64,000 nt of DNA, from assembly GCA_026770705.1 (NCBI GenBank), contig JANJGN010000385.1, positions 186,001 to 250,000 of the forward strand, given 5' to 3'. The notes below the pieces were generated by a model that was not told the DNA's origin, did no database searches, and saw only the letters and a program-made list of their open reading frames with translations. The DNA comes from Isurus oxyrinchus. Lineage: Eukaryota. Position 1 is the first letter of the stretch; every line of letters starts with the position of its first letter. A program made the position numbers and the translations under genes. This document shows positions 27,588-64,000 of this stretch, in pieces.

Positions 27588-28559
27588 CTGGAAAAGCAGG
27601 AAGACAATAGGTGAGAACATTCCGGAAAGAAAGAAGGCATCATTTCAATCAGGCGCGTCATTGGAAGGAGGATGGCGCATTTCTATAGCGCCTTTCCCCT
27701 CCTCAGGATGGCCCAAAGTGTTCCACAGCTGAAGGAAGGACTTTTTCTGAAGTGAGCTCACCGCTGTAATGTAGGAAACGCAGCAGGCAATTCACGCACA
27801 GCAAGATCCCACAAACAGAAATGTGATAATGGCCCCGATTTTCAGTTTTTTACCAATGTCAGTTGAGGGATAAATGTTTGCCCCAGGAAAGCAGACATAA
27901 CTGCATCCCATCCACCCCCCACCACCCCCTCCACACATACCCCCAACTCCTGACGCACTTCATTTAAATTGTGGCCATGGAATCCTCTACATCCATCTGA
28001 GAGGGCAGATGTTGTCTCAGTTTAACATCTCATCTGAAAGACAGCGCATTCAACAGTGCAGCACCCCCTCAGTACTGACCCTCCGACTGTGCAGCACTCC
28101 CTCAGTACTGACCGTCTGACAATGCAGCACCCCCTCAGTACTGACCCTCCGACTGTGCAGTCCCCCGCCGGTACTGACCCTCTGATAATGCAGCACTCCA
28201 AGACTGACTGTCTGACAATGCAGCACCCCCTCAGTACTGACCCTCCGACTCTCCTGCCCCCCCGCTGGTACTGACCCTCCGACAGCTCGGTAATTTCTCA
28301 ATTATGCCTGGTGGTCCTTTTAACTCAGAGCTGAGAGTTGCAGAGAATCGAGCAGACATCCTGAACTGACACTTGCAGTGCAAGTACTGGGAGCGCGCTG
28401 GTCATTATCATGCTGCTGTCTGTGGGATCTTACTGTGCGCCAATGGCTGATTCTTTTCCCACAGTACATCAGTGACCTCACATGAAAGAAAAAAAGCACT
28501 TGATTGTCTGCGAAACAGTTTGGGACGTCCTGATGTGTTGGAAGGCGCTAGAGAAATGC

Positions 28560-28710
28560 AAGAGTTGACGTTTCGAGTCCTCATGACCCTTCTGAGGACT
28601 CGAAACGTCAACTCTTTTCTTCTCCGCCGATGCTGCCAGACCTGCTGAGTTTTTTCAGGTAATTCTGTTTTTGTTTTGGCTTTCCAGCATCTGCAGTTTT
28701 CTTTGTTTTT
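28560..28710. mobile_element. Penelope-like short repeat with inverted 5' piece (24-bp perfect hairpin)
   Basis: 28560-28583 is the exact reverse complement of 28593-28616. The family body gatgctgccagacctgctgag follows. Confidence 0.7.
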
Positions 28711-29983
28711 ATAGAGAAATGCAAGTCCTCTTTGTCTTTCACTCGATCCTCTAAGGTGTCTGTTGATTAACCAGCCTCTCGGTGTTTGATGTAGGCCTGG
28801 TTATAAACAGGTAGAAGGATCAAATATCAAAAATGCTTTGGCTGACAGTCAAACCGATTGTGCATTCGGAGAGATTAGATACGGTCTGCACACAATGACT
28901 CCAGTCTCTGGCACTGACTGCCGCCTGGGGTCTCCCTTCCACATAACACTCACAACTTGCAATTACACAGCGCCTCTGACATTGCAAAATGTCCCAGCCC
29001 ACATTACCGGAGCGTAAATCAGAGAGAAGTCTAACACTGAGTCACATATGGAGATATTAGGGATAGGTGACCAAAAGCTTGGTCAAAGATGTCAGTTTTT
29101 AAGGAGCGTCTTAAAGGAGAGAGAGAGAGAGAGGCAGAGAGGTTAAGGGAGGGTATTCCGGAGCTCAGGGCCCCAGGCAGCTGAAGGCACGGCCACCAAT
29201 GGTGGAGCGATGGGAATCAGGGGGACCCGGGAGATGCAGTAATGTCAGAGATTTTGGAGGAACATCGGGACCGGAGGAGGTGTTCTCCTGCTCCATATCT
29301 CTCTCTCTCTTCCTCTCTTCCACTCCTCCTCTCCCTGTCTCTCTCTCTCCTACTCTTCCGCTCAATTGCCCTCTCTCCCAATCTTTCTCTCCTCTCTCCC
29401 TTTTCCTGTCTCTCTCCCTCTCTCTCCCCTGTCTCCTTCTCCCACTCTGTATCTCTCCCTCTCTCTCACACTATTTTTGTAACTTTCGCTCACTCTGTAA
29501 CTCTCCCTTTCCTGTTAATTTCTCTCTCTTGGACAATCACTCTTCCCTTTTCACTTTCCCTCACTCTGCATCTCTTTAATTTCTCCCTCTGTCACTCTCT
29601 CCCACCTATTTTCTTTCCCTTTCACCCCTCCCCGTCCCACTCTCTGTCTCTCTCTTCCAATCCCTCCCTCCCCCATTCCATCCCTCTCTCCGACTCTCGA
29701 CTCCCAGCCTCTCTTTAACCCACTCCCAGGCTGGATCAGTCTCCCTCTCACTATTCCCGGCGTGGGTTACATTTAAAATTCCTGTGGGGATATGTTCACT
29801 TCCTTGGAATTGCCTCTTCCCAGCTTTGCAAAAAAAGTGGGGGCGGGGGGGGTTCGATTTCAAACATGCCTCCTGAGTATAACCGAGACAGACTGCCACT
29901 GAAATCAGCTTGAAATCAGAAAACTTTCTGTGGAAGAAACGAGCAGGGAGAAACCTTAAAATAAGGAATGAATTTCCACCTAC

Positions 29984-30040
29984 CGTGTCCGGGGAATCCA
30001 CAGATTTCTCAATCGTCGAAGAACCTAAAGCAGTGTCAAC
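29984..30040 (-). CDS. hamp: Hepcidin copy 1, exon 2 (propeptide VDTALGSSTIEKSVDSPDT)
   Basis: ttctttttgcag| ... ACG|gtaggt, 57 nt, open only in phase 0. Size and phase fit HAMP exon 2. Confidence 0.85.
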
Positions 30041-30804
30041 CTGCAAAAAGAAAGAATTTATCAGGGAGAAAGTGAGAGGAGGATTGAGGGAGAGGGAGAG
30101 AGAGAGAGAGAGGTACAGGAGAGAGAGGGGGAGGAGGACAGACTTGCATTTCTCTAACGCCTTTCACCACATCCCAAAGCATTTCACAGCCACTGAAGGA
30201 TGTTTTTGAAGTGCACTCACACTGTAGGAAATGTGGCAGCTGATTTGTGCACAGCAAGATCCCACAAATAGCAATGTGATCATGGCCTAGATCATCTGTT
30301 TTTGGTGATGTTGGGTGAGGGATAAATATTGGTCCCAGGACACCGGGGAGAACACCCCCTGCTCTTCCTCCAAATAGTGGCTGTGGGATCTTTCACACCC
30401 GCCCGAGAGGGCAGACGGGGGACTCAGTTTAATGTCTCATTCAACATTGTTGTGCTCCCTCAGTACTAACCCTTTGACACTGCAGCACTCCCTCAGTACT
30501 AACCCTTCGATAGTGCTGCACTCCCACAGTATTGTCCCTCCGTCAGTGCAGCGCTACCTCAGTACTGACCCTCCGACAGTGCAACACTTCCACAGTACTG
30601 ACCCTGTAACAATGCAGCACTTCCTCAGTACTGACCTCCGACAGTATAGCACTCACTCAGTACTGTCCCTCCAATAGTGCAACACTTCCACACTACTGAC
30701 CCTCTGACAGTCCAGCACTCCCTCAGCACGGAGTGTTGACCGATGTTATGGGACTGAATTCCCTGGAGTGAGACTCAGACCAGAGATTTAGGTAGGGTTG
30801 TTCC

Positions 30805-31645
30805 GGCTGGAGGAGGTTACAGAGATAGGGAGGGTTGTAGAGGCTGTAGGAGGTAACAGAGATAGGGAGGGTTCTAGAGGCTGTAGGAGGTGACAGAGAT
30901 AGGGAAGGTTGTAGGGGCTGTAGGAGGTTACAGAGATAGGGAGGTGAGTAGGGGCTGTAGGAGGTTAAAGAGATGGGGGGGTTGTGGGGGCTGGAGGAGG
31001 TTACAGAGGTAGGGAGGGTTGTAGAGGCTGGAGGAGGTTACCAAAATAGATACTGTTGTAGGGGCCACAGTAGGTTACAGAGATAGGGAGAGTTATAGTG
31101 TGGAGAGGACGTTATAGAGTTCATGAGCATTGTAGGGGCTGGAGGAGGTTACAGTGATTCTGAGGGTCGTGGGGCCTGGAGGAGGTTACAGAGATAGGAA
31201 GGGTTGTAGGGCCTGGAGGAGGTTACAGAGATAGGGAGGGTTGTAGGGTCTGGAGCAGGTTACAGAGATAGGGAGGGTTGTAGGGTCTAGAGGAGGTTAC
31301 AGTGATCATGAGGGTTGTGGGGCCTGGGGGAGGTTACAGAGATAGGTAGGGTTGTAGGGGCTGGAGGAGGTTACAGAGATAGGGAGGTTTATAGGGGCTG
31401 GAGGAGGTTACAGAGATAGGGAGGGTTGTAGGGGCTGGAGGAGGTTACGGAGATAGGGACAGTTGTAGGGGCTGGAGGAAGTTACAGAGATAGGGATTGG
31501 TGTAGGGGCTGGAGGAGGTTACAGATATAGGGAGGGTTGTAGCGGCTGGAGGAGGTTACAGAGATAGGGAGGGGTGTAGGGGCTGGAGGAGGTTACAGAG
31601 ATAGGGAGGGTTGTAAGGCCTGGTGGAGGTTACAGAGATAGGGAG
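30805..31645. repeat. 37-bp VNTR (ggaggaggttacagagatagggagggttgtaggggct) in hepcidin intron 1, ~23 copies
   Basis: Period 37 (for example 31141, 31178). Confidence 0.93.
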
Positions 31646-31846
31646 TGGCTGAGGAGGGATTGAAAACAAGAATGAGAATTTCAGGGGAAACGACAGAAGG
31701 AAATGATGTTAAATTCATAGAGGGCGACAATATTAAAGGCACGAACATAATAATATCAAACTGCGGAAGTGACCAGTCTATCTGGGTGGTAGACGTAGAC
31801 TCATGTGCAAGAAACACCTCACCCAGAGGGACATCTCTTAGCTTAC

Positions 31847-31924
31847 CCTCGACAAGGAGAAGAAGTGACTCAGCTGCAGGGAGAGCAGCAAAGTCAGAGT
31901 GAACAAGACAAGTCGCCATTTCAT
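31847..31924 (-). CDS. hamp: Hepcidin copy 1, exon 1 (signal peptide MKWRLVLFTLTLLLSLQLSHFFSLSR)
   Basis: ATG ~85 nt below the TATA box, basic n-region and hydrophobic h-region, AGG|gtaagc in phase 0. Confidence 0.88.
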
Positions 31925-32008
31925 CTGGGAGCTTCCCATCTCTGCCTGTCTCTTCTGATCTTCTGGCTCTGCTTTGATGCTTTGGTTTGTAACTAGAGGA
32001 GCTTCCTG

Positions 32009-32225
32009 CTCTTATACCTGAAACACTTGAAGGGGACAGCCGCGGGTGGGTAGCTGTGTGGTATCACACCCATTTCTGGATATTGCAGTGTCGATGTTCC
32101 CTGTCCCACTGGCCTGGGACCAGCAGTAAGGTCACTGGGACATTGACTGTCTGGCGCCGAGAACTATCAGTCCCTCCGCAACGCCCTTCACCTTGTGCAA
32201 ATATGTGTTCATATTGACGCAACAC
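32009..32225 (-). promoter_or_regulatory. Hepcidin copy 1 proximal promoter
   Basis: TATAAGAG at 32009-32016. GGCGCC at 32153-32158 abutting AGAC/GTCT. C/EBP-like TTGCACAA and TTGCGTCAA upstream. Confidence 0.75.
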
Positions 32226-32599
32226 AACATAGCAAAAACAGAGGGGCTGGTTCTTATGTCGGCAAATCAGGTGAACCGCATGCCCCCTAACCCATTACTC
32301 CTCTCATTGCTACACTTACTATTTTACAAATTGTGTGCGTTGCTTTTATTTTGGACAAGGGGCCTTGAGGGGGAACTGATTTACGCTGAGGTTTAAGGGT
32401 TAACAGCCATGTCATGTGTTGATCGGTCAGTGTTTACCATGTGGAGACTGTCTGTCACCAGCTTTGTTCATGGTTTATCCAGGAACATTGAAGGGCATGA
32501 ACGTTCTTGCTTTGTATGGAACAAGTTACCAACTGGGTTCAGTCATCGACTCAGACTCACATCAACATAAACTGGCTTCTGACAGGTAAGTTTCTATTA

Positions 32600-33215
32600 C
32601 ATGAGGGTAGGAGGAGGCCATTTGGCCCCTCGAGCCTGCTCCACCATTCAATGAGATCATGGCTGATCTGCAAACTAGCCCCATATGGCTTTGTCCCATC
32701 TCCTTTAATACCTTTGGATAACAAAAATCTATCAGTCTCACAGGTTTAAAATGAACAACTTGATCGTGCATCAGTTCCTGTTTGGGGAAGACCGTTCCAA
32801 ATTTCTCCCACACTTTGTGCTTCCTAATTTAATTCCTTTTTAGGCTCTGACCCCGAGTCCCAGACTCCCCCCAACCAGGGGAAATGGTTTCTCTTTATCG
32901 CCCCTGATCTGTTCCCCTTAATATCATGCGAGCTTTCATCAAATCTCCTGCTTAACATTCTAACTTCCAGGGAATACAAGCCGAGTTTGTGTTTAATCTC
33001 TCCTTGTGATTTAACCCTTGGTGTCCTGGTCTCATTCTGGTAAATCGACACTGCTCTCCCTCCGAGGTCAATATATCCTTCCTAAGGTGTGGAGCCCAGA
33101 ATGTCTCACAGTGACTCCAGGTGTGGTCTAGCCAGGGCTTTATGTAGACTGAAGCATGACCTCTGCCCCCTTATATTCTAATCCGTGAGATAGAAAGGGC
33201 AGAGTTCCAGAATTG
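32600..33215 (-). mobile_element. CR1-type LINE 3' fragment (mirrored at ~59780-60395)
   Basis: KLGLYSLEVRMLSRR and GLEYKGAEVMLQ remnants. Confidence 0.75.
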
Positions 33216-35019
33216 TTGTGTTTATTCGACAACAGAATAACAGAGGAAGGTTTCCTCTCTGCCCTCTTCAGCCCCACTGGGAAGGTCAGGATGAGAAGGT
33301 TGGGCTGGGTCCCCTGTACTGGACACTCGCTGAATCTTCCAATGATAGTTCTGGGCTGGATTTCAAAACGCATAGACAAGGATTCAGTGTTCCATCACAT
33401 TCTGCCTTTGTCTCTTTTCCTCTCGTTCTCTTTCTCTACCATCCTGTCTCTCTATCTATCTATCTTTCTCCTCATTCTCTCCTGCTTCATCTCTATCACT
33501 TTCTTTCTACTTCTTTGTGTGTCTCTGTCTGTCTCTCTCTCTCTCACTCTTTCTTTCCTTGTCCTTATCTCTTTCAGTGTCTCCCTCTTTCTCTCTCTCT
33601 CTCTCTCTCTAAATGTGACCCTCTCTAACAGTTTGGCCCAGTACTCTTATTTCCCTGTTTTACTGGTGTTCCATTTGAAGGTGTACAAGACCAGATCAGA
33701 CCAGAATGTTTATTTTCCAGTGTTTACTTTGTTTTTTTCATTCTGGGTGTCTCTCGACTCTGTCTGTCCCTCTCTGTCCTTTTATTTCATTCTTTCATGT
33801 GATGTGGACATCACTGCCTAGGCCAGCATTTATTGCCCAACCCTAATTGCCCTTGTTCAGAGGCCACTTTTTAAAAGTCAACCACATTGCTGTGGGTCTG
33901 GAGTCACATGTAGGCCAGACCAGGTAAGGACAGCAGATTTCCCTCCCTAAAGGTCATTTGTGACCCAAATACAAGAATCAGCAATGGTTTCCTGGTCATC
34001 ATCGGACTTTTAATTCCAGGTTTTTATTGAATTGAAATTCCACCAACTGCTGTGGTGAGATTCTAACCAGGGTCCCAGGACCATTACACTGGGTCTCTGG
34101 ATTACTGGTCCAGTGAAAATACCATCAGGCCAACACCTCCCCACTCTTCCCTTCCTCCATCTTTCACACTTGTTCTCTCTCTCTCTCACTCTCCTTCTCT
34201 CTTCTCCCTCTCTCAGTCTCTGTCTGTCTCTCAATCTCTCTATCGCTCTCTATCTTCTGGAGGCTCTCTCTCTGACTGTCTCCCTACCTATATCTGTAAC
34301 CTCCTCTCTCTCTCCCTTTCCTCCAGCCCCTACAACCCTCCCTAAGGCAGCCTCCACCTGCCTCTACAATCCTCCCCATCTCTGTAACCACCTTCAACCC
34401 CTACACCCCTCCCTATATCTGTAACCACCTCCAACCCCCACAATCCTCCCCATCTCTGTAACCACCTTCAACCCCTACACCCCTCCCTATACCTGTAACC
34501 TCCTCCAGCCCCTGTAACCCTCCCTATCTCTTGAAGGGTTCTCAAAATTCCCACATTTTCCATATCATCAACAAGGATATTACTTTTGCACCTTTAAACT
34601 GCTGAGTTAAGTGGAAAACCCTGCAGACAGGAGGCTGGGCCCATGAAGGCCTGGGGCTGCACATGTCCGGGCTTATTGAGAGCAGTGTGGAATGTTTGGC
34701 CTGAAACCAGACAACGAGAGGAGACAGAATACGCATTCTTCCCTTTAATACAATCAACCCAGAGAAAGACTTCACTTCACACGCAACTGAAGCCCATCTA
34801 AATCTTGCATCAATAATCGCTCCTAACTTCTGAGGCCGGCAATTTAATTATGCGAACCCATCAATACTCCACACATACAATGGCTTTCAGTTCAAAACTA
34901 GTTACTGGGCAGGAAGACAATGATAAACATCATGCGAGCCCATTAACAACAACGAGACATCAATCACCTGGGGAAGCCCACCAAAGACAAACAAAGAACG
35001 AACCTTGATTTGATTAGAA

Positions 35020-36500
35020 CTCTCTCTATCACACTCTTCTGCTCTATCTCTCTCTCTCACACACACACACATTCTCTCTCTAACACTCACAATCTCTCTC
35101 TATCACACTCTTCTGCTCTATCTCTCTCTCTCACACACACACATTCTCTCTCTAACACTCACAATCTTTCTCTATCACACTCTTCTGCTCTCTCTCTCTC
35201 TCTCTCTCACACACACATTCTCTCTCTAACACTCACAATCTCTCTCTATCACACTCTTCTGCTCTATCTCTCTCTCTCTCTCACACACACATTCTCTCTC
35301 TAACACTCACAATCTCTCTCTATCACACTCTTCTGCTCTATCTCTCTCTCACACACACACACATTCTCTCTCTAACACTCACAATCTCTCTCTATCACAC
35401 TCTTCTGCTCTATCTCTCTCTCACACACACAGACATTCTCTCTCTAACACTCACAATCTCTCTCTATCGCACTCTTCTGCTCTATCTCTCTCTCTCACAC
35501 ACACACATTCTCTCTCTAACACTCACAATCTCTCTCTATCGCACTCTTCTGCTCTATCTCTTTCTCTCACACACACACATTCTCTCTCTAACACTCACAA
35601 TCTCTCTCTATCACACTCCTCTGCTCTATCTCTCTCTCACACACACACACATTCTCTCTCTAACACTCACAATCTCTCTCTATCACACTCCTCTACTCTA
35701 TCTCTCTCTCTCTCTCACACACACATTCTCTCTCTAACACTCACAATCTCTCTCTATCGCACTCTTCTGCTCTATCTCTCTCTCTCACACACACACATTC
35801 TCTCTCTAACACTCACAATCTCTCTCTATCACACTCTTCTGCTCTCTCTCTCTCTCTCTCACACACATTCTCTCTCTAACACTGACAATCTCTCTCTATC
35901 GCACTCTTCTGCTCTCTCTCTCTCTCACACACACACATTCTCTCTCAAACACTCACAATCTCTCTCTATCACACTCTTCTGCTCTATCTCTCTCTCTCTC
36001 ACACACACATTCTCTCTCTGACACTGACAATCTCTCTCTATCGCACTCTTCTGCTCTCTCTCTCTCTCTCACATACACATTCTCTCTGTCTCCCTCCCTC
36101 AAATACATTCTCTCTCTCTCTCAGACACAAACACTCTCTCACACACTCGCACACTTTCCCTAAAACTAACACAATCTCTCTTTCTGTCAAGCACACACTC
36201 TCTCTCACACACACACACTCTCTCTCTCAGACACACACATTCTCTCTCTCTCAAACATTTAACATTTCTCTTCATCTCGATCTTCTGCTGTCTCTCTCTT
36301 TCTCTCCCTCGCACACACACACACACTCTCTGTCACAAACACACGCTCTCTCCCACACACTCTCTCTCACACACTCTCACATGCACACTCTCTCCCTCAT
36401 ATACAAACACTCGCCCTCACACATGCACACTCTCTATCTCTTTTTCTCTCTCACACAGTCTCTCTGTCTCTCTCTCTCTCTCAGACACTCTCTCTCTCTC
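35020..36500. repeat. Compound (CT)/(CA) ~63-bp tandem repeat (mirrored at ~53060-54150)
   Basis: Unit tctctctctaacactcacaatctctctctatcacactcttctgctcta(tc)n(ac)n. Confidence 0.9.
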
Positions 36501-37813
36501 TGATACAGAATGTTTTAAGACCTGCTCATGATTTCAGCTCAAAACCCAGGTAGATTCTCCCCAGTGAGGGAGTGGTGAGGGAGTGCTGCACTGTCAGAGG
36601 ATCAGTACTGAGGGCGTGCTGCACTGTCAGAGGGTATGTACTGAGGGAGTGCTGCACTGTCGGAGGATCAGTACTGAACACAATGTCCATTCAGAACAGC
36701 TCGGTCCCCGATCAGAGAAACAGCCTCAGACAGAACCAACTGACGCTGGAATCCATACAATTCATCAACGTGTTGGGAGTTAGTTTGATGTCGGAGATGG
36801 AGTGTTACTGGGAAGGAGGGAACCCGTCAGGATGAACAGCTCGATGTATGACAAGGAAAGGATGAGCTAAGAGGGGTTGGCCACGGACAGACGGAGCATG
36901 TGAAGACTCAACAAGCTAATGGCAGGTGAAGAGCTGGAAAGGTGTCTTTTCAACACAAGGTTTAGACACAGAACTCGATGTTTGATCGGGTATTTCAAAC
37001 CAGAGAAACTCTTTACAGGGTGAATGGACCTTGTCAATAATCCATCCAGCCAACCTCGCCTGGAGATTAGTCCAATATTAGACACTAAACCGAGTCCCCC
37101 GTCTGCCCTCTCGGGCGGGTGTGAAAGATCCCACAGCCACTATTTGGAGGAAGAGCAGGGGGGAGATCTCCCCGGTGTCCTGGCACCAATATTTATCCCT
37201 CAACCAACATCACCAAAAACAGGTGATCACATTGCTGTTTGTGGGAGCTTGCTGTGCGCTAATTGGCTGCTGCGTTTCCTACATTACAACAGTAACCACA
37301 CTTCGAAAAAAGGGTTCACTCAACTGTAAAGTGTTCTGGGACATCCAGAGACCATGCTGTACAGAAGAGATTTGACAGGAGCAGCAAGTGTTTTACTTAC
37401 AGGAGAATGAGTCCCCAGGGTTGTAGAGTCAATCCTGTCAGATGAATGTCTAACTGGAGACACTTCAGGGAGCTGATCTAATTCTGGAAATGTTCAGTTT
37501 AGCAGGATCGGAGGAGAGATGATCTTCCTCTCCTGACTGCATCGGACACGAGGTGAACTGGCTCTGGGAGGAGGGTCAGTGTTAACCCAGTTTTTCTGTG
37601 TTTGAGGGAGATGTGAAACTGGGGATGTCACGTGGTTTTTTGGTGTGGTAACTCCATGTCTTTATTTGGTGCAGCACTCATTTAGTTCATGTCGTTGTTT
37701 CAATGCTACAAAACCACAACGCATTCTGGACTATTTCTGCCTGACCTGCTGTCAGATACACAGTCTGACAGGGAGGCGGAAAAGTGGTCCCTAGCAACGT
37801 GTGTAACTGTGAA

Positions 37814-40800
37814 NNNNNNNNNNNNNNNNNNNNNNNNNNNNNNNNNNNNNNNNNNNNNNNNNNNNNNNNNNNNNNNNNNNNNNNNNNNNNNNNNNNNNNN
37901 NNNNNNNNNNNNNNNNNNNNNNNNNNNNNNNNNNNNNNNNNNNNNNNNNNNNNNNNNNNNNNNNNNNNNNNNNNNNNNNNNNNNNNNNNNNNNNNNNNNN
38001 NCACTCTTTTGCACAAACACTCTTTCACGCACACACATGCACACACACACGCACACAAACGCACAAACTCACTCACACACAAACCCTCACACACACACAG
38101 ACACAAACATTAGCACACACACACACACACTCACACATGCACACATACTCTCAAACACACACTGTTTTGCACAAACACTTTCTCTTTCACACACACACAT
38201 ACACACACACTCTCTCTCTCACACACATGTTCTCTCTCACTCCCTGTCTCAAACACACAATCTCCCCCTCCCTCAAACACTCACACCATCTCTTTCTCGC
38301 ACACTCCCTCTCTCAAACACACACACCCTCTTTCTCAAACACACACACACACACGATCTCACACACACACTCTCACATACACAAACACTCTCTCACAGAC
38401 ACACACTCTGTTTTGCACACACACTATCTCACACGCACATTCTCTCTATCTTTCTCTCTCACACATAAATTCTTTCTCACTCTCACAGACGTTCTCTTTC
38501 TCTCACACACACTCTCTCTCTCACACACAAGCTACCTCCCTCTCTCATGCACACACACTCTACCTCTCTTTTGCTCTCTCACACATACACACTCTCAGTC
38601 TCTCACACATACATTGTCTCTCTCTCTCACATAAACGCACTCTCTCTCTCTGAGATGGAAGGTTGGGATTTTGAGACCGTCTCAAGGTTTCAGCTTAAAA
38701 TGCGGACGGACTCTTCCCAGTGAGGGAGTGCTGCACTGTCAGAGGGTCAGTACTGAGAGAGTGCTGCACTGTTGGAGGGTTAGCACTGAGGGAGTGCTGC
38801 ACTTCCAGAGGGTCGGTACTGAGGGAGAGCTGCACTCCCAGAGGGTCAGTGCTGAGGGAGTGCTGCACTCCCAGAGGGTCAATACTGAAGGAGTGCTGCA
38901 CTCTCAAAGGGTCAATGCTGAGGGAGTGCTGCACTGTCAGAGGGTGGGCACTGAGGGAATGCTGCTCTGTCAGACCTGCCATATTTCAGATGACATTTGA
39001 AATTAGCAACATGCCTCATGTATAATTATATATCATCAGCTCAAAATAAATAGATTATTCCTGTACGTTTCACTTTACTGTAAATTGTTTGCAGTTTCAT
39101 TTCCTTAGAAACCAGGCTTGTGTGATCACTATTTTTAAATAACGTTAATAATAAAGATGCAACAATCCACACGCACACATGTACACACACACACACATTC
39201 ACTCACAAGGGTACATAGACAGACACACACTCACNNNNNNNNNNNNNNNNNNNNNNNNNNNNNNNNNNNNNNNNNNNNNNNNNNNNNNNNNNNNNNNNNN
39301 NNNNNNNNNNNNNNNNNNNNNNNNNNNNNNNNNNNNNNNNNNNNNNNNNNNNNNNNNNNNNNNNNNNNNNNNNNNNNTTAGAGTCCAATAAAAATTTAAA
39401 AGAATATATGATTAATACAATTGCTTGTCTTTGAGGTGTAGATTGTTGACGTTTGCAGCTGTTCAAGGTTAATTGGTTTCCTGTGGCATCCTGGTGGTGA
39501 TTTGATTCAGATTTGCACTTTGTTGAAGATGCGCTGTTAGCTTCAGAAAGAGAGAGAGAGAGAGAGAGAATTTCTGCTCTTTTCCAGCAGTGTTTTTGAG
39601 TGACTGCCATCTTTCTTTTTCCTCCTACTTTCTCTTATATCTGCTTGACAGAACCTGTTGTTAAACTCCTGTCTGTATATTCCCAAAGGGAATTCGATCA
39701 GCATGTCTTGCAATCATTGTCGTAGACCAAGTAATCCCTTTTTTGATCTTTGCATCTCTGAAACATTTGATGCATTTCAAGATATAAATCAACAGGAGAT
39801 GGAGGCATTTCATCCTCCACAAGAGGTTTTGAATGACTGATGAATATCTGCATGGTGAGCAGTTCCCATTAGCTTGATAGACCTACAGTGATCAGAGTCC
39901 AGCGCTTTGCATTTTTAATGGAGCCCCTGTTTCAGGTGGACCCTGACACACCTCAGTGAGAACTTTCATGCAACATGTCTGTAGTGCAATTCATTTGAAG
40001 CTTTCCAGAGAAGTGATCAAGTTTGCAGTATCAGCAATCAGGTGACTCGTGACAGCCATTTTTGATCAATGCCTAATCTTGTACTTTTGAAAAACAGGTC
40101 TCCTTTAAACAGTTCAATACATTTTTGGCTCGTTGGTTAAGTTGAAGGAAGCTCTGTTATGACATAACAGATGGTAAATGCTGAGCTGTTCAAATCCTGG
40201 AGGGAAACTTGAAACAACTGTCACAACTAATTTCCAACTTGTATGTTTTGAGATGTGGGCTTTGAATTCAGTAGTAATGAGATTAAGATGTTTAAGAGGT
40301 AATTATGGTTGGTTGAAAAAAAGGGTTTAAAATATATTTTCCCCCAAATGCAATTTCCAAAGCAAGTCTCTTTGATTGTTAAGAATGAACCAATTAAACC
40401 ACGTTTGGTGGAGTCAAAGAAAGAGTAAGTTTATTAGTTACCTAACTGGAGGAAAAATAATNNNNNNNNNNNNNNNNNNNNNNNNNNNNNNNNNNNNNNN
40501 NNNNNNNNNNNNNNNNNNNNNNNNNNNNNNNNNNNNNNNNNNNNNNNNNNNNNNNNNNNNNNNNNNNNNNNNNNNNNNNNNNNNNNNNNNNNNNNNNNNN
40601 NNNNNNNNNNNNNNNNNNNNNNNNNNNNNNNNNNNNNNNNNNNNNNNNNNNNNNNNNNNNNNNNNNNNNNNNNNNNNNNNNNNNNNNNNNNNNNNNNNNN
40701 NNNNNNNNNNNNNNNNNNNNNNNNNNNNNNNNNNNNNNNNNNNNNNNNNNNNNNNNNNNNNNNNNNNATAATTATAGAGTCCAATAAAAAATTAAAAGAG

Positions 40801-41965: not shown

Positions 41966-42079
41966 GTATGTCTGTGTGTGTCTGTGTGTGTCTGTGTGTG
42001 CCTGTGTGTGTCTGTATGTGTGTGTGTCTTTGTGTGTGTTTGTGAGAGAGAGAGTGAGTGATTCACAGAGTGAAACCTC

Positions 42080-42230
42080 CCTGAGTGTGGCCGGTGTGTT
42101 TAACATTTAAGCCACACAGACAGGATGTGGTTAAAAGGTGAAACCACAAGGAGTGAGTGTGTATCCCAATGACTGTCTCTCTGTGGGTTTCCTGTGGGTT
42201 TCTGTGAACTGCCTGTGGTTTTAAAAAAAA
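42080..42230. promoter_or_regulatory. Candidate haematopoietic enhancer (ETS:RUNX composite + RUNX cluster)
   Basis: ACAGGATGTGGT at 42120-42131, AACCACA at 42142-42148, TTCCTG at ~42189, TGTGGTT at 42214-42220. Confidence 0.5.
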
Positions 42231-49134: not shown

Positions 49135-49416
49135 ATTCCACAGTGATGGTTATGAACCCCTCCACTGCTCCATGTTCATTCTCTGCCACACACTGATAGT
49201 CTCCAGTGTCCCTGGATGTAACGTGAGGAATCACCAACCACAGCTCATTGTTGGAACTTGTTCTGTTCATTGGGACATTAAGATGTCGCCACGTCAGGTT
49301 AGAAGCTGGGAAGCTCTTGACAGAGCAGATTATCACTGCAGAATTCCACTCAATTATATTGATTGATGAAGCGTAAATCATATTAAGCGAAGTAAATGAG
49401 AGATCCTGTGGTGCAT
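49135..49416 (-). CDS. Siglec-like gene D, membrane-proximal C2-set Ig exon (no upstream exons found in window)
   Basis: ttttag| ... T|gtgagt, 282 nt, ~93% identical to 10204-10485. Confidence 0.85.
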
Positions 49417-54118: not shown

Positions 54119-54415
54119 CAGAAGAGTGTGATAGAGACAGATTGTGAGGGCTAAACTCACTAAGAGAAAAAGCTGGACACCCAGCACAGGGAGTGAGGGA
54201 ACAATGAATTTTTGCCGTGTTTGGTGAATCGGTTTGCGATGTCCCTTCTCAATCTCTCCTTCCTTGTCTTGACATTAGATAATTCCCTGGGGCTGTTTAA
54301 TTCCCTGAAAGGTGCCATTTAAACACAAGTTGTTGTTGTTTGAGGAAGAAACACTGGGGACAATTTCTGAAAAAGTCTCTGTCTTTGTCATTTCCATTTA
54401 GATGAGGAACTGAAG

Positions 54416-54461
54416 ATGGGAGAGGTCGGTCTGATACTGATCGTCATCAGCTTGCTGCAAG
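54416..54461 (+). pseudogene. Siglec/MAG-like gene E, leader exon (MGEVGLILIVISLLQ)
   Basis: Acceptor ends at 54401, ATG at 54416, SLLQ-G|gt in phase 1 as in the other leaders. Confidence 0.8.
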
Positions 54462-54789
54462 GTACAAATTCATTACTGATCGGAACTCAGGGAATTGGAT
54501 TCTTTCCTGGAGTGAGGAAGTGAACATTTAATTTTAGAGAACAGGGTTAGTGATCACACAGAGAGTGAGTGAATAGCGAGTCAGAGAATATAGCAAAAGA
54601 AAAAGCCTCATACAGACTCGAAACACCAACTCTGTTTCTCTCTCCACAGATGCTGTCAGACCTGCTGAGTTTTTCCAGCATTTTCTGTTTGTGCATCAGA
54701 GAGCTTGTTTCAATAGGAATGACAGTGCATTTATATAGCACCTTTAATGCAGTAAAACATCCTTACTGCTTCACAGGATTCCCCCACAA

Positions 54790-55250
54790 GGGGTAACATC
54801 CCCTCAGCATCGACCCTGTCAAACCCCCCACCACCTCAGAATCTTATATGTTTCAATAAGATCACCTCTCATTCTTCTAAACTCCAATGGATACAGGGCC
54901 CAACCTGCTCAACATTTCCTCATAAGACAAACCCCCTTCATCCCAGGAATCAGCCCAGTGATCCTCCTCTGAACTGCCTCCAATGCAGAGTCTATCCCTC
55001 CCTAAGTAAGGAGACCAGAACTGTACACACTGCTCCTGATACAATCTCACCAACGCCCTGTACAGTTGTAGCAAGACTCCCCTCCTTTTATACTCCATCC
55101 CTTTGCAATAAAGGCCAACATTCCACTTGCCTTCCTCATTCCGTGCTGTTCCTGAATGCTGACTTTCTGTGATTCATGTACAAGGACACCCAGATCCCTC
55201 TGTGTCGCATTCTGTAGATTCTCTCCATTGAAGTAATATTCTGCTTTTTG
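54790..55250 (-). mobile_element. CR1-type LINE fragment
   Basis: MEYKRRGVLLQLYRALVRLYQEQCVQFWSPYL. Confidence 0.85.
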
Positions 55251-55281
55251 ATGTCCTGTCCCCTCCCTTGTTGCCTTTCAG

Positions 55282-55583
55282 GAGTGACGTCAGAGGAATG
55301 GTCTATGAAGGCGCTGCCTCAGAGGGCCATCAGCAGCTCTTGTGTGGTTATTCCGTGTAGCTTTGACTTTCCTTCCCACTCTTACACAGCACTGCATGGA
55401 GCTTGGTATAAATATTGGTATAGATGGAAATATACCATCACATACACCAAAGATCCCAATTATGGGATGGCCACATTCGTGGGACGTGCTAAAATAATCG
55501 GCGACTTGGAAGGGAAGAATTGTTTGGTGAGGATTGACAGTCTCAGAGCTGAAGACAGTGACGTGTATTACACCCAATTCTAA
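55282..55583 (+). pseudogene. Siglec/MAG-like gene E, truncated V-set exon
   Basis: SSCVVIPCSFDFP..LHGAWY..FVGRAKIIGDLEGKNCLVRIDSLRAEDSDVYY, then TQF*. Homology is lost after 55571. Confidence 0.9.
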
Positions 55584-55970
55584 ATCTTTTCACCAATTAG
55601 TCGTCCTCATGAAGATGTATTTTCAGCTGAAGCCGTGGGTAATAATGCAGAGGTTTAAGTTTAACTCCAGAGTAAGGGCCCAGGGAGAGTCCATCGCAAC
55701 CTATACAGTGAAGTGGAAGCAGGTGACTGAGCACTGGGACCTCGGAGACACACTCAATGACATGTTGCGGGGCCGATTGGTTTGTGTCGTTCACCCCAAC
55801 GCCATTCAGAGCCGTTTACTCGCAGAAGCCGACATCGATTTGAAGCGCACCATGGAAATAGCGCCAGGCATGGAAAGTGCTGGGAGAGACTGGCGGGATT
55901 TACAGGATGTACAACATGGCGCCAGTCCTCAGCTGGGACAGGAACCAACCACCGGGCGTGAGGCTCAAAC

Positions 55971-56003
<33 letters not shown>

Positions 56004-56680
56004 CCGCCAAGCGAGAGACAGTCTCTGCCGCTCCAGAAACTAAAAGGCTTCGTGGGAGTATTTCAGCAGCAACTCCGAAGTTGGCCTGTTCTCGATGTGG
56101 GGGGCATTGAGCACGTACTGGACACCTGCAGGTTCAAGGGGGCAGAATGCCATCACTGCCACAAGAAAGGGGCGGGTAATAAAGCAATGCAGGGTGAAAT
56201 CGAGACAGCCCATCAGACAGTGCACCAACATGATGGAAGTGAATAATATCACAGAGCCTGAAGCTGCTGATACCGATGTCTATTCCCTGTCCAATGTCAC
56301 AGTGGTAAAAACTGAACCTATAACCATCACAACCCAAGTGAATGGGCAGCCACTAGTAATGGGGCAGATACGGGAGCCTCAGACACAGTGGTGGAAGAGC
56401 CCACATTTAAACAGCTAAATGAAGGAACCCAGACGCTGAATTTAGAGCCAACAATGGATCAGCTGAAGACACACACTGGAGAATCCATACAGGGAAAGGA
56501 CCTCATCCCAGTACCTGTGTCCTACAGGCAGCAGACAGCCCAGCTTCCAGTGATCATAGTGACAGGTGAGGGCCCTAGTCTTCTGGGCCGAGACTGGTTC
56601 CAGAAAACCAAGCTCAGCTGCTCTGAAATGTTTCACTGGAGGAGTTGCTGAGTTGCTAAGGGAATATGAGAGTGTATCTC
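55572..56680 (+). mobile_element. Ty3/Gypsy LTR-retrotransposon gag-protease remnant
   Basis: QRFKFNSRVRAQGESI..DMLRGRLVC..IQSRLLAE (gag), CRFKGAECHHCHKKG (Zn knuckle), DTGAS and LLGRDW (retropepsin), with frameshifts. Confidence 0.9.
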
Positions 56681-56939
56681 GGGAATGAGTTTGAAGAATT
56701 GAAGCATCCTCACAGGCTGCAAGTGTCCCTCAGGTCAGAGTTGGTTCCACTGGAAAATCCTGAAGAGAAAGAAAGCGAATTCTGTGCCGCTCTGAGCAAA
56801 CTGAAGAAACAGTTGGCAGGGAAGACCCAACCATGTCCAATGTTCCAGGAGGAAGGCAAGAGATACAAGGAAGAGACTGAAGAGCTGAAGATTCAGCTGA
56901 ATGAAACCAAAGAGGCAGTTACAGTATCACAACAAGTTT

Positions 56940-57180
56940 ACAGTGCAGAAGGAGGCCATTCAGCCCGTCGAGCCTGTTACACAGGAACAGTAGCAAGCCC
57001 ATTCAGCCACTGATGTCTCTTACACAGGAACGGAAGGAGGCCCATTTAGCTCCTCAAGACTGTTACACAGAAACAGGAGGAGGCCATTCTGCCACTTATG
57101 TCCGTTATACAGGAACAGGAGGAGGCCCATTCAGCCACTGATGCCCGTTACACAGGAACAGGAGGAGGCCATTCAGCCCC
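56940..57180. repeat. ~40-bp tandem repeat (ttacacaggaacaggaggaggccattcagcc), ~6 copies
   Basis: Visible tandem units. Confidence 0.8.
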
Positions 57181-60100
57181 TTGTAGGGTGTGGTGGTGTG
57201 TGTCAGCTTCACCTGCGACTTCTGAGCCGTCTGAATCACTCCCACTCCCTGGGTTCTAGACCTTGGACTTATTCGGGGCTTGTCACAAAGTGCAGCGGAC
57301 AACTGGTTTTGGTGCAAGACAAAAACTGAGTTTATTGAAGTCACAAATGAACTTCTAACATTAGGATGACACTGAGATTATACAGACTTACAAAGTACAC
57401 TGAGTTAAGAATAGGGAACACATGGCATAACGAGGGAGAATCACGCTACTAATGCCCTTACCCTTGTCCCACCGCCCATCCCTAACTAAATTGCACTAGG
57501 AGAGGTCAGGGGTCACGCTCACCAACCCAGGGTTCCTTGACAGGTGGAAATCCAGCCAGGTAAGCCGGTTGCAGTTTTGGGGGACGCTCTTAGTGTCCTC
57601 TGGGGCCTGTCATCCCCACGTGGTCCTGGTCTGTGGAATCTGTGAAGGGTCTTCAGTTGGGTGGAGGGCGCGGTTGTGGGTGGTCGATCTTCATGGACGG
57701 CAGCGGTTGTGGCCTTGTTGTCTTCGGTTGAGCCTGCCACCCCGTGCCCCTCACCGTGATGTTGCCTGTGGGCCTGCAAACCTCCAGATCTCCTTGCTTA
57801 AACTCTGTTGCAACCGCTCCCAACTGCTCACTGCCCTGTGTCAGCTTTCAACACTGCAACCCTTCTGCTGGCTGGTTTCTCTCCCAACTGACTGCCTAGT
57901 TATACTGCCTTTCGAGTTTCTTATCGCAATCCAAATCAAGGTTCGTTCTTTGTTTGTCTTTGGTGGGCTTCCCCAGGTGATTGATGTCTCGTTGTTGTTA
58001 ATGGGCTCGCATGATGTTTATCATTGTCTTCCTGCCCAGTAACTAGTTTTGAACTGAAAGCCATTGTATGTGTGGAGTATTGATGGCTTCGCATAATTAA
58101 ATTGCCGGCCTCAGAAGTTAGGAGCGATTATTGATGCAAGATTTAGATGGGCTTCAGTTGCGTGTGAAGTGAAGTCTTTCTCTGGGTTGATTGTATTAAA
58201 GGGAAGAATGCGTATTCTGTCTCCTCTCGTTGTCTGGTTTCAGGCCAAACATTCCACACTGCTCTCAATAAGCCCGGACATGTGCAGCCCCAGGCCTTCA
58301 TGGGCCCAGCCTCCTGTCTGCAGGGTTTTCCACTTAACTCAGCAGTTTAAAGGTGCAAAAGTGATATCCTTGTTGATGATATGGAAAATGTGGGAATTTT
58401 GAGAACCCTTCAAGAGATAGGGAGGGTTACAGGGGCTGGAGGAGGTTACAGGTATAGGGAGGGGTGTAGGGGTTGAAGGTGGTTACAGAGATGGGGAGGG
58501 CTGTAGGGGTTGAAGGTGGTTACAGAGATGGGGAGGGTTGTGGGGGTTGGAGGAGGTTACAGATATAGGGAGGGGTGTAGGGGTTGAAGGTGGTTACAGA
58601 GATGGGGAGGATTGTAGAGGCAGGTGGAGGCTGCCTTAGGGAGGGTTGTAGGTGCTGGAGGAAAGGGAGAGAGAGAGGAGGTTACAGATATAGGGAGGGA
58701 GACAGTCAGAGAGAGAGCCTCCAGAAGATAGAGAGCGATAGAGAGATTGAGAGACAGACAGAGACTGAGAGAGGGAGAAGAGAGAAGGAGAGTGAGAGAG
58801 AGAGAGAACAAGTGTGAAAGATGGTGGAAGGGAAGAGTGGGGAGGTGTTGGCCTGATGGTATTTTCGCTGGACCAGTAATCCAGAGACCCAGTGTAATGC
58901 TCCTGGGACCCTGGTTAGAATCCCACCACAGCAGTTGGTGGAATTTGAACTCAATAAATACCTGGAATTAAAAGTCCGATGATGACCAGGAAACCATTGC
59001 TGATTCTTGTATTTGGGTCACAAATGCCCTTTAGGGAGGGAAATCTGCTGTCCTTATCTGGTCTGGCCTACATGTGACTCCAGACCCACAGCAATGTGGT
59101 TCACTTTTAAAAAGTGGCCTCTGAACAAGGGCAATTAGGGTTGGGCAATAAATGCTGGCCTGGGCAGTGATGTCCACATCACATGAAAGAATGAAATAAA
59201 AGGACAGAAGAGGGACAGACAGAGTCGAGAGACACCCAGAATGAAAAAAACACAGTAAACACAGGAAAATAAACATTCTGGTCTGATCTGGTCTTGTATA
59301 CCTTCAAATGGAACACCAGTAAAACAGGGAAATAAGAGTACTGGGCCAAACTGTTAGAGAGGGTCACATTTAGAGAGAGAGAGAGAGAGAGAGAAAGAGG
59401 GAGACACTGAAAGAGATAAGGACAAGGAAAGAAAGAGTGAGAGAGAGAGACAGACAGAGACACACAAAGAAGTAGAAAGAAAGTGATAGAGATGAAGCAG
59501 GAGAGAATGAGGAGAGAGATAGATAGATAGAGAGAGAGGATGGTAGAGAAAGAGAACGAGAGGAAAAGAGACAAAGGCAGAATGTGATGGAACACTGAAT
59601 CCTTGTCTATGCGTTTTGAAATCCAGCCCAGAACTATCATTGGAAGATTCAGCGAGTGTCCAGTACAGGGGACCCAGCCCAACCTTCTCATCCTGACCTT
59701 CCCAGTGGGGCTGAAGAGGGCAGAGAGGAAACCTTCCTCTGTTATTCTGTTGTCGAATAAACACAACAATTCTGGAACTCTGCCCTTTCTATCTCACGGA
59801 TTAGAATATAAGGGGGCAGAGGTCATGCTTCAGTCTACATAAAGCCCTGGCTAGACCACACCTGGAGTCACTGTGAGACATTCTGGGCCCCACACCTTAG
59901 GAAGGATATATTGACCTCGGAGGGAGAGCAGTGTCAGTTTACCAGAATGAGACCGGGACTCCAAGGGTTAAATCACAAGGAGAGATTAAACACAAACTCG
60001 GCTTGTATTCCCTGGAAGTTAGAATGTTAAGCAGGAGATTTGATGAAAGTTTGCATGAAACTAAGGGGAACAGATTGGGGGCAATAAAGGGAAACCATTT

Positions 60101-60774: not shown

Positions 60775-60991
60775 GTGTTGCGTCAATATGAACACATATT
60801 TGCACAAGGTGAAGGGCGTTGCGGAGGGACTGATAGTTCTCGGCGCCAGACAGTCAATGTCCCAGTGACCTTACTGCTGGTCCCAGGCCAGTGGGACAGG
60901 GAACATCGACACTGCAATATCCAGAAATGGGTGTGATACCACACAGCTACCCACCCGCGGCTGTCCCCTTCAAGTGTTTCAGGTATAAGAG
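60775..60991 (+). promoter_or_regulatory. Hepcidin copy 2 proximal promoter
   Basis: TTGCACAA at 60800-60807, GGCGCC at 60842-60847 followed by AGAC, TATAAGAG at 60984-60991. Confidence 0.75.
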
Positions 60992-61075: not shown

Positions 61076-61153
61076 ATGAAATGGCGACTTGTCTTGTTCA
61101 CTCTGACTTTGCTGCTCTCCCTGCAGCTGAGTCACTTCTTCTCCTTGTCGAGG
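61076..61153 (+). CDS. hamp: Hepcidin copy 2, exon 1 (signal peptide)
   Basis: Coding sequence identical to 31847-31924, donor AGG|gtaagc. Confidence 0.85.
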
Positions 61154-61349: not shown

Positions 61350-61815
61350 AGCCACTCCCTATCTCTGTAACCTCCACCAGGCCTTACAAACCTCCCTATC
61401 TCTGTAACCTCCTCCAGCCACTACAACTGTCCCTATCTCTGTTACCTCCTCCAGCCCCTACAACACTCCCTATCTCCGTAACCTCCTCCAGCCCCTACAA
61501 CCCTCCCTATCTCTGTAACCTCCTCCAGCCCCTATAAACCTCCCTATCTCTGTAACCTCCTCCAGCCCCTACAACCCTACCTATCTCTGTAACCTCCCCC
61601 AGGCCCCACAACCCTCATGATCACTGTAACCTCCTCTAGACCCTACAACCCTCCCTATCTCTGTAACCTGCTCCAGACCCTACAACTCTCCCTATCTCTG
61701 TAACCTCCTCCAGACCCTACAACCCTCCCTATCTCTGTAACCTCCTCCAGGCCCCACGACCCTCAGAATCACTGTAACCTCCTCCAGCCCCTACAATGCT
61801 CATGAACTCTATAAC
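61350..61815. repeat. 37-bp VNTR in hepcidin copy 2 intron 1, ~12 copies
   Basis: Shorter mirror of 30805-31645. Confidence 0.9.
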
Positions 61816-62519
61816 ATCGGTCAACACTCCGTGCTGAGGGAGTGCTGCACTGTCAGAGGGTCAGTAGTGTGGAAGTGTTGCACTATTGGAGGAACAGTAC
61901 TGAGTGAGTGCTATACTGTCGGAGGTCAGTACTGAGGAAGTGCTGCATTTTTACAGGGTCAGTACTGTGGAAGTGTTGCACTGTCGGAGGGTCAGTACTG
62001 AGGGAGCGCTGCACTGACGGAGGGATAATACTGTGGGAGTGCAGCACTATCGAGGGGTTAGTACCGAGGGAGTGCTGCAGTGTCAAAGGGTTAGTACTGA
62101 GGGAGCACAACAATGTTGAATGAGACATTAAACTGAGTCCCCCGTCTGCCCTCTCGGGCGGGTGTGAAAGATCCCACAGCCACTATTTGGAGGAAGAGCA
62201 GGGGGTGTTCTCCCCGGTGTCCTGGGACCAATATTTATCCCTCACCCAACATCACCAAAAACAGGTGATCTAGGCCATGATCACATTGCTATTTGTGGGA
62301 TCTTGCTGTGCACAAATCAGCTGCCACATTTCCTACAGTGTGAGTGCACTTCAAAAACATCCTTCAGTGGCTGTGAAATGCTTTGGGATGTGGTGAAAGG
62401 CGTTAGAGAAATGCAAGTCTGTCCTCCTCCCCCTCTCTCTCCTGTACCTCTCTCTCTCTCTCTCCCTCTCCCTCAATCCTCCTCTCACTTTCTCCCTGAT
62501 AAATTCTTTCTTTTTGCAG

Positions 62520-62576
62520 GTTGACACTGCTTTAGGTTCTTCGATGATTGAGAAATCTGTGGATTCCCCGGACACG
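62520..62576 (+). CDS. hamp: Hepcidin copy 2, exon 2 (VDTALGSSMIEKSVDSPDT); exon 3 expected just past the window end
   Basis: One substitution versus copy 1 (ACG>ATG, T>M). Splice sites intact. Confidence 0.82.
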
Positions 62577-64000
62577 GTAGGTGGAAATTCATTCCTTATT
62601 TTAAGGTTTCTCCCTGCTCGTTTCTTCCACAGAAAGTTTTCTGATTTCAAGCTGATTTCAGTGGCAGTCTGTCTCGGTTATACTCAGGAGGCATGTTTGA
62701 AATCGAACCCCCCCCGCCCCCATTTTTTGCAAAGCTGGGAAGAGACAATTCCAAGGAAGTGAACATATCCCCACAGGAATTTTAAATGTAACCCACGCCG
62801 GGAATAGTGAGAGGGAGACTGATCCAGCCTGGGAGTGGGTTAAAGAGAGGCTGGGAGTCGAGAGTCGAAGAGAGGGATGGAATGGGGGAGGGAGGGATTG
62901 GAAGAGAGAGACAGAGAGTGGGACGGGGAGGGGTGAAAGGGAAAGAACATAGGTGGGAGAGAGTGACAGAGGGAGAAATTAAAGAGATGCAGAGTGAGGG
63001 AAAGTGAAAAGAGAAGAGAGATTGTCCAAGAGAGAGAAATTAACAGGAAAGGGAGAGTTACAGAGTGAGCGAAAGGTACAAAAATAGTGTGAGAGAGAGG
63101 GAGAGATACAGAGTGGGAGAATGAGACAGGGGAGAGAGAGAGGGGGAGAGACAGGAAAGGGGAGAGAGGAGAGAAAGATTGGGAGAGAGGGCAATTGAGA
63201 GGAAGAGTAGGAGAGAGAGAGACAGGGAGAGGAGGAGTGGATGAGAGGAAGAGAGAGAGAGATATGGAGCAGGAGAACACCTCCTCCGGTCCCGATGTTC
63301 CTCCAAAATCTCTGACATTACTGCATCTCCCGGGTCCCCCTGATTCCCATCGCTCCACCATTGGTGGCCGTGCCTTCAGCTGCCTGGGGCCCTGAGCTCC
63401 GGAATACCCTCCCTTAACCTCTCTGCCTCTCTCTCTTTCTCTCTCTCTCTCCTTTAAGACGTTCCTTAAAAACTGACATCTTTGACCAAGCTTTTGGTCA
63501 CCTATCCCTAATATCTCCATATGTGACTCAGTGTTAGACTTCTCTCTGATTTACGCTCCGGTAATGTGGGCTGGGACATTTTGCAATGTCAGAGGCGCTG
63601 TGTAAATGCAAGTTGTGAGTGTTATGTGGAAGGGAGACCCCAGGCGGCAGTCAGTGCCAGAGACTGGAGTCAATGTGTGCAGACCGTATCTAATCTCTCC
63701 GAATGCACAATCGGTTTGACTGTCAGCCAAAGCACTTTTGATATTTGATCCTTCTACCTGTTTATAACCAGGCCTACATCATACACCGAGAGGCTGGTTA
63801 ACCACCAGGCGTAATTGAGAAATTACCGAGCTGTCGGAGGGTCAGTATTGAGGGTGTGCTGCACTGTCAGAGGGTCAGTACTGAGGGAGTGCTGCACTGT
63901 CAGAGTGTCAGTACTGAGGGAGTGCTGCACTGTCAGAGGGTCAGTACTGAGGGTGTGCTGCACTGTCAGAGGGTCAGTACTGAGGGTGTGCTGCACTGTT

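Follow-up and report, generated by a model that had tools for sequence, protein, structure and literature searches.

A probable head-to-head pair of hepcidin genes with near-identical 5′ halves in a rearranging Siglec cluster of the mako Isurus oxyrinchus

Hepcidin gene duplication is in itself ordinary, being known in mouse, in teleosts and, as annotated models, in the shark Heptranchias perlo. Binding of hepcidin to ferroportin involves a bioactive patch formed by His3, Phe4, Ile6 and Phe9 (PMC7915682). In sea bass, Hamp1 changes ferroportin, whereas Hamp2, which lacks His3, does not (PMC8502971, PMC5665920). SIGLEC11 and SIGLEC16 lie head-to-head about 9 kb apart; gene conversion, patchy and repeated, has homogenised their 5′ parts, and a microsatellite marks the boundary (PMC5701461). 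The proximity of HAMP to MAG in human has indirect support only (PMC4453067). In sharks, hepcidin has been detected in nurse-shark plasma (PMC9207270). Our literature searches on hepcidin in sharks, elasmobranchs and chondrichthyans and on shark siglec found no paper on shark hepcidin gene structure, which is weak evidence as subscription papers were mostly outside the search; in the literature that was covered, shark hepcidin is almost unstudied. Here we analyze a 64,000-nucleotide stretch of DNA from the mako Isurus oxyrinchus (GenBank assembly GCA_026770705.1, contig JANJGN010000385.1, positions 186,001 to 250,000 of the forward strand; hereafter the window) that, as assembled, carries two hepcidin (HAMP) genes facing away from each other in a Siglec cluster, the second of them running off the window's end.

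The two HAMP models of H. perlo lie on a 15.7-Mb sequence that also bears its Siglecs, and their accessions are consecutive with that of a Siglec, an order that suggests HAMP-Siglec adjacency. The two hepcidins differ at one of 59 pre-pro residues and at eight of 29 mature residues (Fisher p 5e-4). The mature N-terminus of one has the canonical H3-V4-P5-I6, and that of the other D3-E4-P5-H6.

Self-BLAST of the window after tandem-repeat masking (13,141 bases masked, gaps included), to which arm-to-arm alignments were added, returned collinear inverted blocks from 28760/63808 through 39167/50166 (Table 1). An earlier reading of the letters without database searches (the sequence-only reading) had placed the mirrored segments at about 28.0-39.2 kb and 50.1-64.0 kb around a spacer of about 11 kb; the inverted repeat is borne out for 28053-39198, but not demonstrable for 28030-28052, the window ending in a 33-bp satellite. 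Exons 1 and 2 of hepcidin have GT/AG splice sites in both arms, and the two start codons are 29 kb apart, head-to-head as assembled. The arm alignment agrees with the earlier claim that the promoter, exon 1 (identical) and exon 2 (one T/M change) are kept in both arms, and one of the 45 residues encoded by these exons differs within the pair. The GGCGCC hexamer occurs three times in the 64 kb, two of these being the hepcidin promoter sites. We take it to be a BMP/Smad-type element; the motif was not found in the passages of PMC4726556 that were consulted. No perfect STAT (TTCN3GAA) or E-box site is present within 500 bp of the ATG.

The left gene is complete, with an open reading frame of 83 codons (26+19+38) in three exons, GT/AG splice sites and an R-x-K/R-R-type processing site; human hepcidin likewise has three coding exons with phase-0 junctions. 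Its signal peptide was assigned through alignment to the Heptranchias hepcidin signal region. Exon 3 lies inside the window, beyond the range covered by the sequence-only reading (28030 onward), and secures the hepcidin identity given there. In a Pfam scan of 268 stop-to-stop frames (at least 65 aa, at most half masked) and the exon-3 frame, it matched PF06446 with 32.1 bits against a cut-off of 27 (E 1.4e-7), and the eight-cysteine pattern C-x2-CC-x-CC-xn-C-x2-CC had a single match in the six frames of the window. A tblastn search with three Heptranchias hepcidins found one exon-3 locus and no hidden canonical exon 3 in the window; exon 3 of the right copy is expected at about 64.46-64.58 kb, some 0.5 kb past the window end.

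An exhaustive HMMER protein search gave three matches, the two Heptranchias hepcidins and Branchiostoma P0110, a repetitive protein that we dropped as a chance match. The only three matches of exon 3 in the PDB were all hepcidins and all weak (E 0.12-2.4), and a hepcidin cluster of the ESM Atlas (0.75, rank 2) was treated as a lead only. Exon 3 had no match among proteins of 28-90 aa or 91-2000 aa when these were searched by word index, which we regard as weak negatives, and the AlphaFold2 model of the left peptide is helical with low confidence (pLDDT 59, pTM 0.31). No lamniform hepcidin (Carcharodon, Cetorhinus) was among the protein-search matches, though Siglec models of both were abundant; hepcidin may be unannotated in the genomes of these closest relatives.

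The left mature peptide has 29 residues, with eight cysteines in register with human Cys7. Its N-terminus reads Arg3, Gln4, Gln5 and lacks the His3 and hydrophobic residue 4 of ferroportin-regulating hepcidins, an absence of the His3-type N-terminus that is typical of HAMP2-type hepcidins, while Leu6, Cys7 and Phe9 retain the hydrophobic residue 6, the cysteine and the aromatic residue 9. The net charge is 0 (K+R minus D+E), which differs from the cationic character of HAMP2-type hepcidins and speaks against simple membrane killing. The loop of eight residues, four more than in human hepcidin, contains an N-E-T sequon, a candidate N-glycosylation site. With His3 and Phe4 lost, the left product is probably not an effective down-regulator of ferroportin; we lean towards a peptide that is inactive on ferroportin and would act in immunity, like HAMP2.

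Eight blocks of unique sequence, with 5,740 aligned bases in all, contain 82 differences between the arms (1.43%, Wilson confidence interval 1.15-1.77%; identity 98.6%). The count is 83 of 5,770 when one 30-bp block is added, and the divergence is still 1.2% without the most divergent 500 bp. The mismatches are clustered (dispersion 2.5, reached in 1 of 10,000 shuffles, p 1e-4; squared-run statistic p 0.002): 18 fall within one 320-bp window, as in none of 10,000 shuffles, and the longest identical run, of 493 bp (left 31801-32293, p 0.05), covers exon 1 and the proximal promoter. Core repeats differ by 0-2.8% between the arms. Several inner unique pieces differ by 4.5-19%, while 36678-37810 remains at 1.7%. 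Subject to alignment and turnover, on which satellite figures depend, divergence is 6-17% in the 72-mer and CT/CA tract and 12% in the outermost satellite, which lies in the outer part of intron 2, a similarity of 88% just ahead of exon 3. This patchy divergence fits arm-to-arm gene conversion. One inner unit of the right arm (50691-50761) is 19% different from its left counterpart and resembles an older paralogous unit (36512-36570 and 52983-53041), possibly through conversion among internal duplicates.

The three arm-specific indels of the sequence-only reading are all present, and its list had overlooked a fourth, the left-only block in intron 1 (Table 1), owing to which this intron measures 1806 bp on the left and 1366 bp on the right. 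We read the blocks as deletions, in both arms, because their junctions carry microhomology or short filler and because part of the right-only block at 52392-52756 is an older paralogue of 50187-50357 (84-85% identical). Insertion of the right-only blocks into one arm was rejected in view of the composite content, the older paralogue, the microhomology or filler and no target-site duplication being seen. Within the first left-only block, a 57-bp self-complementary stretch (28560-28616, 88%) marks where two short repeats meet.

On balance, we favour a segmental duplication of HAMP that set two genes head-to-head in a rearranging Siglec cluster, with a 5′ half homogenised by conversion and a diverging exon 3. 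A duplication-inversion with a microsatellite breakpoint would have split a Siglec gene and placed the two HAMP genes head-to-head, and deletions in both arms and patchy gene conversion would have come later. Arm-to-arm conversion would keep promoter, signal and propeptide near-identical as the arm ends drift. It would be expected to make paralogues group by species in converted parts and by locus elsewhere; for the two sharks compared, the pre-pro parts group by species, the window pair against the Heptranchias pair, with the right exon 3 lying beyond the window. Both genes would be co-regulated via their common promoter, and their furin-processed products would differ at the mature N-terminus, the left one probably without ferroportin action. 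The right copy is predicted to differ in exon 3, to be closer there to the canonical form and to serve as the iron hormone, since the window pair shows the same 5′ homogeneity (1/45) as the Heptranchias pair; that its exon 3 is both clearly different and canonical is a tentative expectation, to which we give a little less than even weight.

Several points weigh against this model. No gap-free sequence joins the arms, and for that reason their orientation rests on scaffolding; the join at 39235-39377 lacks self-supporting flanks, the left tail matches 41641-41674 inverted at 32 of 34 bases, and small contigs may be mis-oriented. If the two contigs are treated as allelic, a tidy map of a single locus results, in which every type-1 Siglec lies on the same strand. 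Clustering of mismatches is also expected from an allelic mosaic or where the promoter is under selection, and taken by itself the 493-bp run is marginal. The synonymous rate used below may underestimate non-coding change, and among the sharks of PMC9826928 the mako has the highest heterozygosity. The Heptranchias pair is known as annotated models on one sequence. On the side of function, the left peptide keeps Leu6, Cys7 and Phe9 and its gene the GGCGCC element, which fits iron/BMP control, and the functional reading of the pair is a prediction from sequence.

The alternative that survives best accepts much the same structure and differs in function and history only. It proposes a lineage-specific duplication that gave two equivalent divergent peptides, acting by dosage and still regulating a co-evolved lamniform ferroportin, with the Heptranchias pair arising independently. 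The satellite and repeat insertions common to both arms are 97-99% identical along about 7 kb, the promoter with GGCGCC and the residues Cys7 and Phe9 are kept, and the locus duplicates often, as seen in direct Siglec repeats with 0-9% divergence. The left peptide, 47-50% identical to each Heptranchias copy, is also not clearly orthologous to either. It sits poorly with the loss of His3 and of a hydrophobic residue 4, with the fall in similarity to 88% in the satellite ahead of exon 3 and with the same asymmetric pattern in Heptranchias, and we consider it unlikely, if worth keeping in view. Rather doubtful, in turn, is the most far-reaching extension of the favoured model, namely that a head-to-head pair has been kept since before the galeomorph-squalomorph split, with a converted 5′ half and with exon 3 encoding a ferroportin hormone in one copy and a non-ferroportin peptide in the other. 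If true, the lamniform non-ferroportin peptide would be neutral and possibly N-glycosylated, and a hamp1/hamp2-like division of labour would have arisen separately from that of teleosts via a paired-gene mechanism like that of SIGLEC11/16.

That the arms are an assembly artefact, with one locus whose two haplotypes were assembled as separate contigs and scaffolded back-to-back, would leave a single non-canonical hepcidin. The sequence-only reading had raised this caveat from the N gaps, and the gaps are indeed there; homology also runs to 36 bp from the gap at 39235, and a coherent single-locus map results. Deep allelic divergence can moreover be carried by immune clusters. Against a haplotype origin stand the 1.43% of substitutions together with four large indels and 4.5-19% at the inner pieces, the deletions in both arms, the different paths that the arms take beyond a common (CA)n at 39198/50135 and the two copies of Heptranchias. 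At the published synonymous rate for lamnids (1.77e-10 per site per year; PMC9826928), 1.43% corresponds to about 40 million years (33-50), and it is about three quarters of the synonymous divergence at the mako-white shark split (1.9%). Alleles so divergent would require a long-term effective population size of 0.38-0.83 million; the published minimum sizes of 8,500 and 28,200 (PMC9826928) translate into an allelic divergence of 0.03-0.05%, a lower bound that favours two loci. Paralogues fit better than alleles because of this estimated age. The duplication would thus be old, of the order of tens of millions of years, the haplotype origin is improbable, and we hold with good confidence that two real hepcidin loci are present. 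Were the copies haplotypes after all, a non-canonical hepcidin at the locus would raise a question about iron control in the group.

Least probable is that both copies are real and the contig at 41966-64000 is mis-oriented, leaving direct tandem repeats: the scaffolding crosses three gaps, flipping the contig would put the spacer Siglec on the strand of Siglecs A and B, and the Siglec duplicates on the left are direct repeats, but the gap at 41691-41965 is flanked by (TG)n on both sides, that at 40462-40767 has repeat units of the same direction on its two sides and flanks that overlap by 5 bp, and the unequal gap sizes suggest pair-based estimates. Only one of the three spacer joins is unsupported, since the other two have consistent flanks, and an inverted arrangement as assembled appears likely to us.

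Table 1. Positions of the inverted repeat, the hepcidin genes and the surrounding Siglec loci in the window.
Feature	Position	Strand	Length	Remarks
Left arm of inverted repeat	28053-39198		11.1 kb	One N gap within (37814-38001); self-BLAST and alignment, satellites counted
Right arm of inverted repeat	64000-50135		13.9 kb	Stops at window end, in 33-bp satellite of hepcidin intron 2
Spacer	39199-50134		10,936 bp	Three N gaps, two direct repeat copies, long interspersed nuclear element (LINE) pieces, 3′ half of a Siglec gene
N gaps	37814-38001, 39235-39377, 40462-40767, 41691-41965			
Left hepcidin exon 1	31847-31924	-	26 codons	Signal peptide; phase-0 GT donor
Left hepcidin exon 2	29984-30040	-	19 codons	Acidic propeptide; Thr (Met in right copy)
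Left hepcidin exon 3	27471-27587	-	38 codons	RQKR furin-type site and mature peptide; outside the demonstrably mirrored part
Left candidate polyA signal (AATAAA)	26630-26635	-		835 bp past stop codon; sole one in 1,070 bp scanned
Left promoter	32012-32158	-		TATAA at -92, GGCGCC at -234 relative to the ATG; part of the 493-bp identical run
Right hepcidin exon 1	61076-61153	+		Identical to left exon 1
Right hepcidin exon 2	62520-62576	+		Met variant, one T/M codon change
Right promoter	60842-60988	+		GGCGCC 60842-60847 (-234), TATAA ~60984-60988 (-92)
Left-only block	28316-28767			Imperfect microhomology at junction; read as right-arm deletion
Left-only block, intron 1	30746-31110			From arm alignment
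Right-only block	52392-52756 (unique part)			With satellite to ~52880; CTGA microhomology; read as left-arm deletion
Right-only composite block	54149-57931		3.8 kb	Siglec 5′ fragment, LINE piece, Gypsy-like remnant; left junction with ~7-bp filler
Siglec A, mosaic	288-11847	+		Signal, V-set (Cys-to-Arg, B strand), C2, two immunoglobulin (Ig) exons of second type, Ig, transmembrane
Siglec B, damaged	12638-19548	+		Duplicated 5′ exons, V-set cut to 41-bp tail, C2, 5′-truncated Ig exon, transmembrane
Siglec C, 3′ half	45971-49417	-		Ig 49136-49417, transmembrane 48227-48322, cytoplasmic 47268-47351, last exon 45974-46219
Second-type Siglec fragment	54416-55571	+		Signal exon 54416-54461, V-set from 55283; sialoadhesin/MAG-like
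Long terminal repeat (LTR) retrotransposon gag/protease remnant, broken	55572-56648	+		PF13975 E 0.006, below curated cut-off; Gypsy label is an interpretation

Four damaged Siglec loci surround the hepcidin pair, and every Siglec gene seen in the window is broken. For the V-set exon at 3434-3799, 109 of 121 candidate proteins matched, and all named matches were chondrichthyan Siglec-like proteins (best Carcharodon 92%, Cetorhinus 88%); the other type-1 exons match models from Carcharodon or Cetorhinus at 89-100% identity, and a V-set with the arginine of YFFR is followed by C2-set exons, as in CD33-related-like shark Siglecs. These V-set, Ig and transmembrane exons uphold the Siglec neighbourhood described in the sequence-only reading, and the instability it attributed to the locus is supported. 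Its proposal that hepcidin and Siglec genes were amplified together is not supported in the strict sense: the arms share no Siglec exon. The left arm has none, and the right arm has only a truncated signal and V-set fragment, in one of its private blocks; at its inner junction, the right arm interrupts a Siglec gene within an intron. That breakpoint is the (CA)n near 50130, beyond which the 5′ half of Siglec C has been replaced by the right arm; it is placed in an intron because the sequence of 50127-49750 comes after a Siglec Ig exon in the Cetorhinus and Carcharodon models P0001 and P0034. The human HAMP gene lies next to CD22, and the window extends the HAMP-Siglec linkage to cartilaginous fish.

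In Siglec A, no cytoplasmic exons were found. Two signal exons, at 13187 and 54416, were assigned by reading the sequence. The last exon of Siglec C keeps LFYANI, like an immunoreceptor tyrosine-based inhibitory motif (ITIM), but in its distal motif Asp stands in place of the Tyr seen in Carcharodon homologues. The transmembrane exon at 19414-19548 (+) encodes a membrane segment with an arginine, followed by a very short tail, and is 93% identical to Carcharodon P0020, which suggests an activating-type Siglec beside ITIM-bearing ones and thus putative paired receptors in sharks. The second-type V-set is 68% identical over 96 aa to Heptranchias P0033 and is cut off by the Gypsy-like remnant at about 55571, short of where the sialic-acid-binding arginine would be. 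Domains 2-3 of this type occur within Siglec A (8647-9697, +; 55-64% to sialoadhesin/MAG-like models of Heptranchias and Pristiophorus), and its signal and V-set exons are in the right arm, at a distance of 45 kb, as exon shuffling or a scattered gene could produce. Segments 1-4513 and 12603-17273 are direct duplications of Siglec 5′ regions that diverge by 0-9%; one block of 154 bp is identical, and a 28-bp minisatellite is included, suggesting that duplication or conversion is ongoing.

In the spacer, the direct copies at 39379-40155 and 40775-41558 are about 80% identical over a matched stretch of about 0.8 kb and flank a gap of 306 N with a 5-bp flank overlap (39378-41558). They are probably a tandem LTR-like repeat, and given this and the overlap the gap size there may be unreliable. 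The 33-bp satellite occurs in more than 10 places in the window, and its array at 6024-7110 reverses orientation at about 6285, forming an imperfect palindrome of about 0.5 kb. An Rfam scan of the window gave no matches.

New here is a complete, promoter-bearing hepcidin without His3 and Phe4 next to a second copy that shares its 5′ half, and the pair makes it possible to test directly if the iron hormone and the immune peptide have split more than once in jawed vertebrates. Like the window, Heptranchias has two copies, hepcidin-1 (XP_067831448.1 / XP_067831450.1) and hepcidin-like (XP_067831447.1), with near-identical pre-pro parts, a 29-aa mature peptide and an eight-residue loop, and the left exon 3 resembles both to the degree given above; both of its peptides, however, carry a positive net charge (+4, +2) and have no sequon, and one keeps His3-Val4-Pro5-Ile6. 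Human hepcidin-25 (PDB 1m4f, PF06446) shares the eight cysteines in the same order, the Cys7 register, Phe9 and the furin-type site, whereas the left shark peptide has His3 changed to Arg, Phe4 to Gln and Pro5 to Gln, a longer loop, the N-E-T sequon and charge 0, and human has a single hepcidin gene against the two here. Teleost hamp1/hamp2 (sea bass; PMC8502971, PMC5665920) are likewise duplicated hepcidins of which one type lacks His3 and does not regulate ferroportin, but the shark copies, known from sequence and in a cartilaginous fish, share exons 1-2 and promoter almost unchanged. SIGLEC11/16 offers the same head-to-head layout, homogenised 5′ parts and a microsatellite boundary, with conversion in the shark pair being the likely equivalent; in that pair the homogenised part is the one that binds ligand and divergence falls on the signalling end, whereas in hepcidin, a secreted peptide, it is the active part that would diverge.

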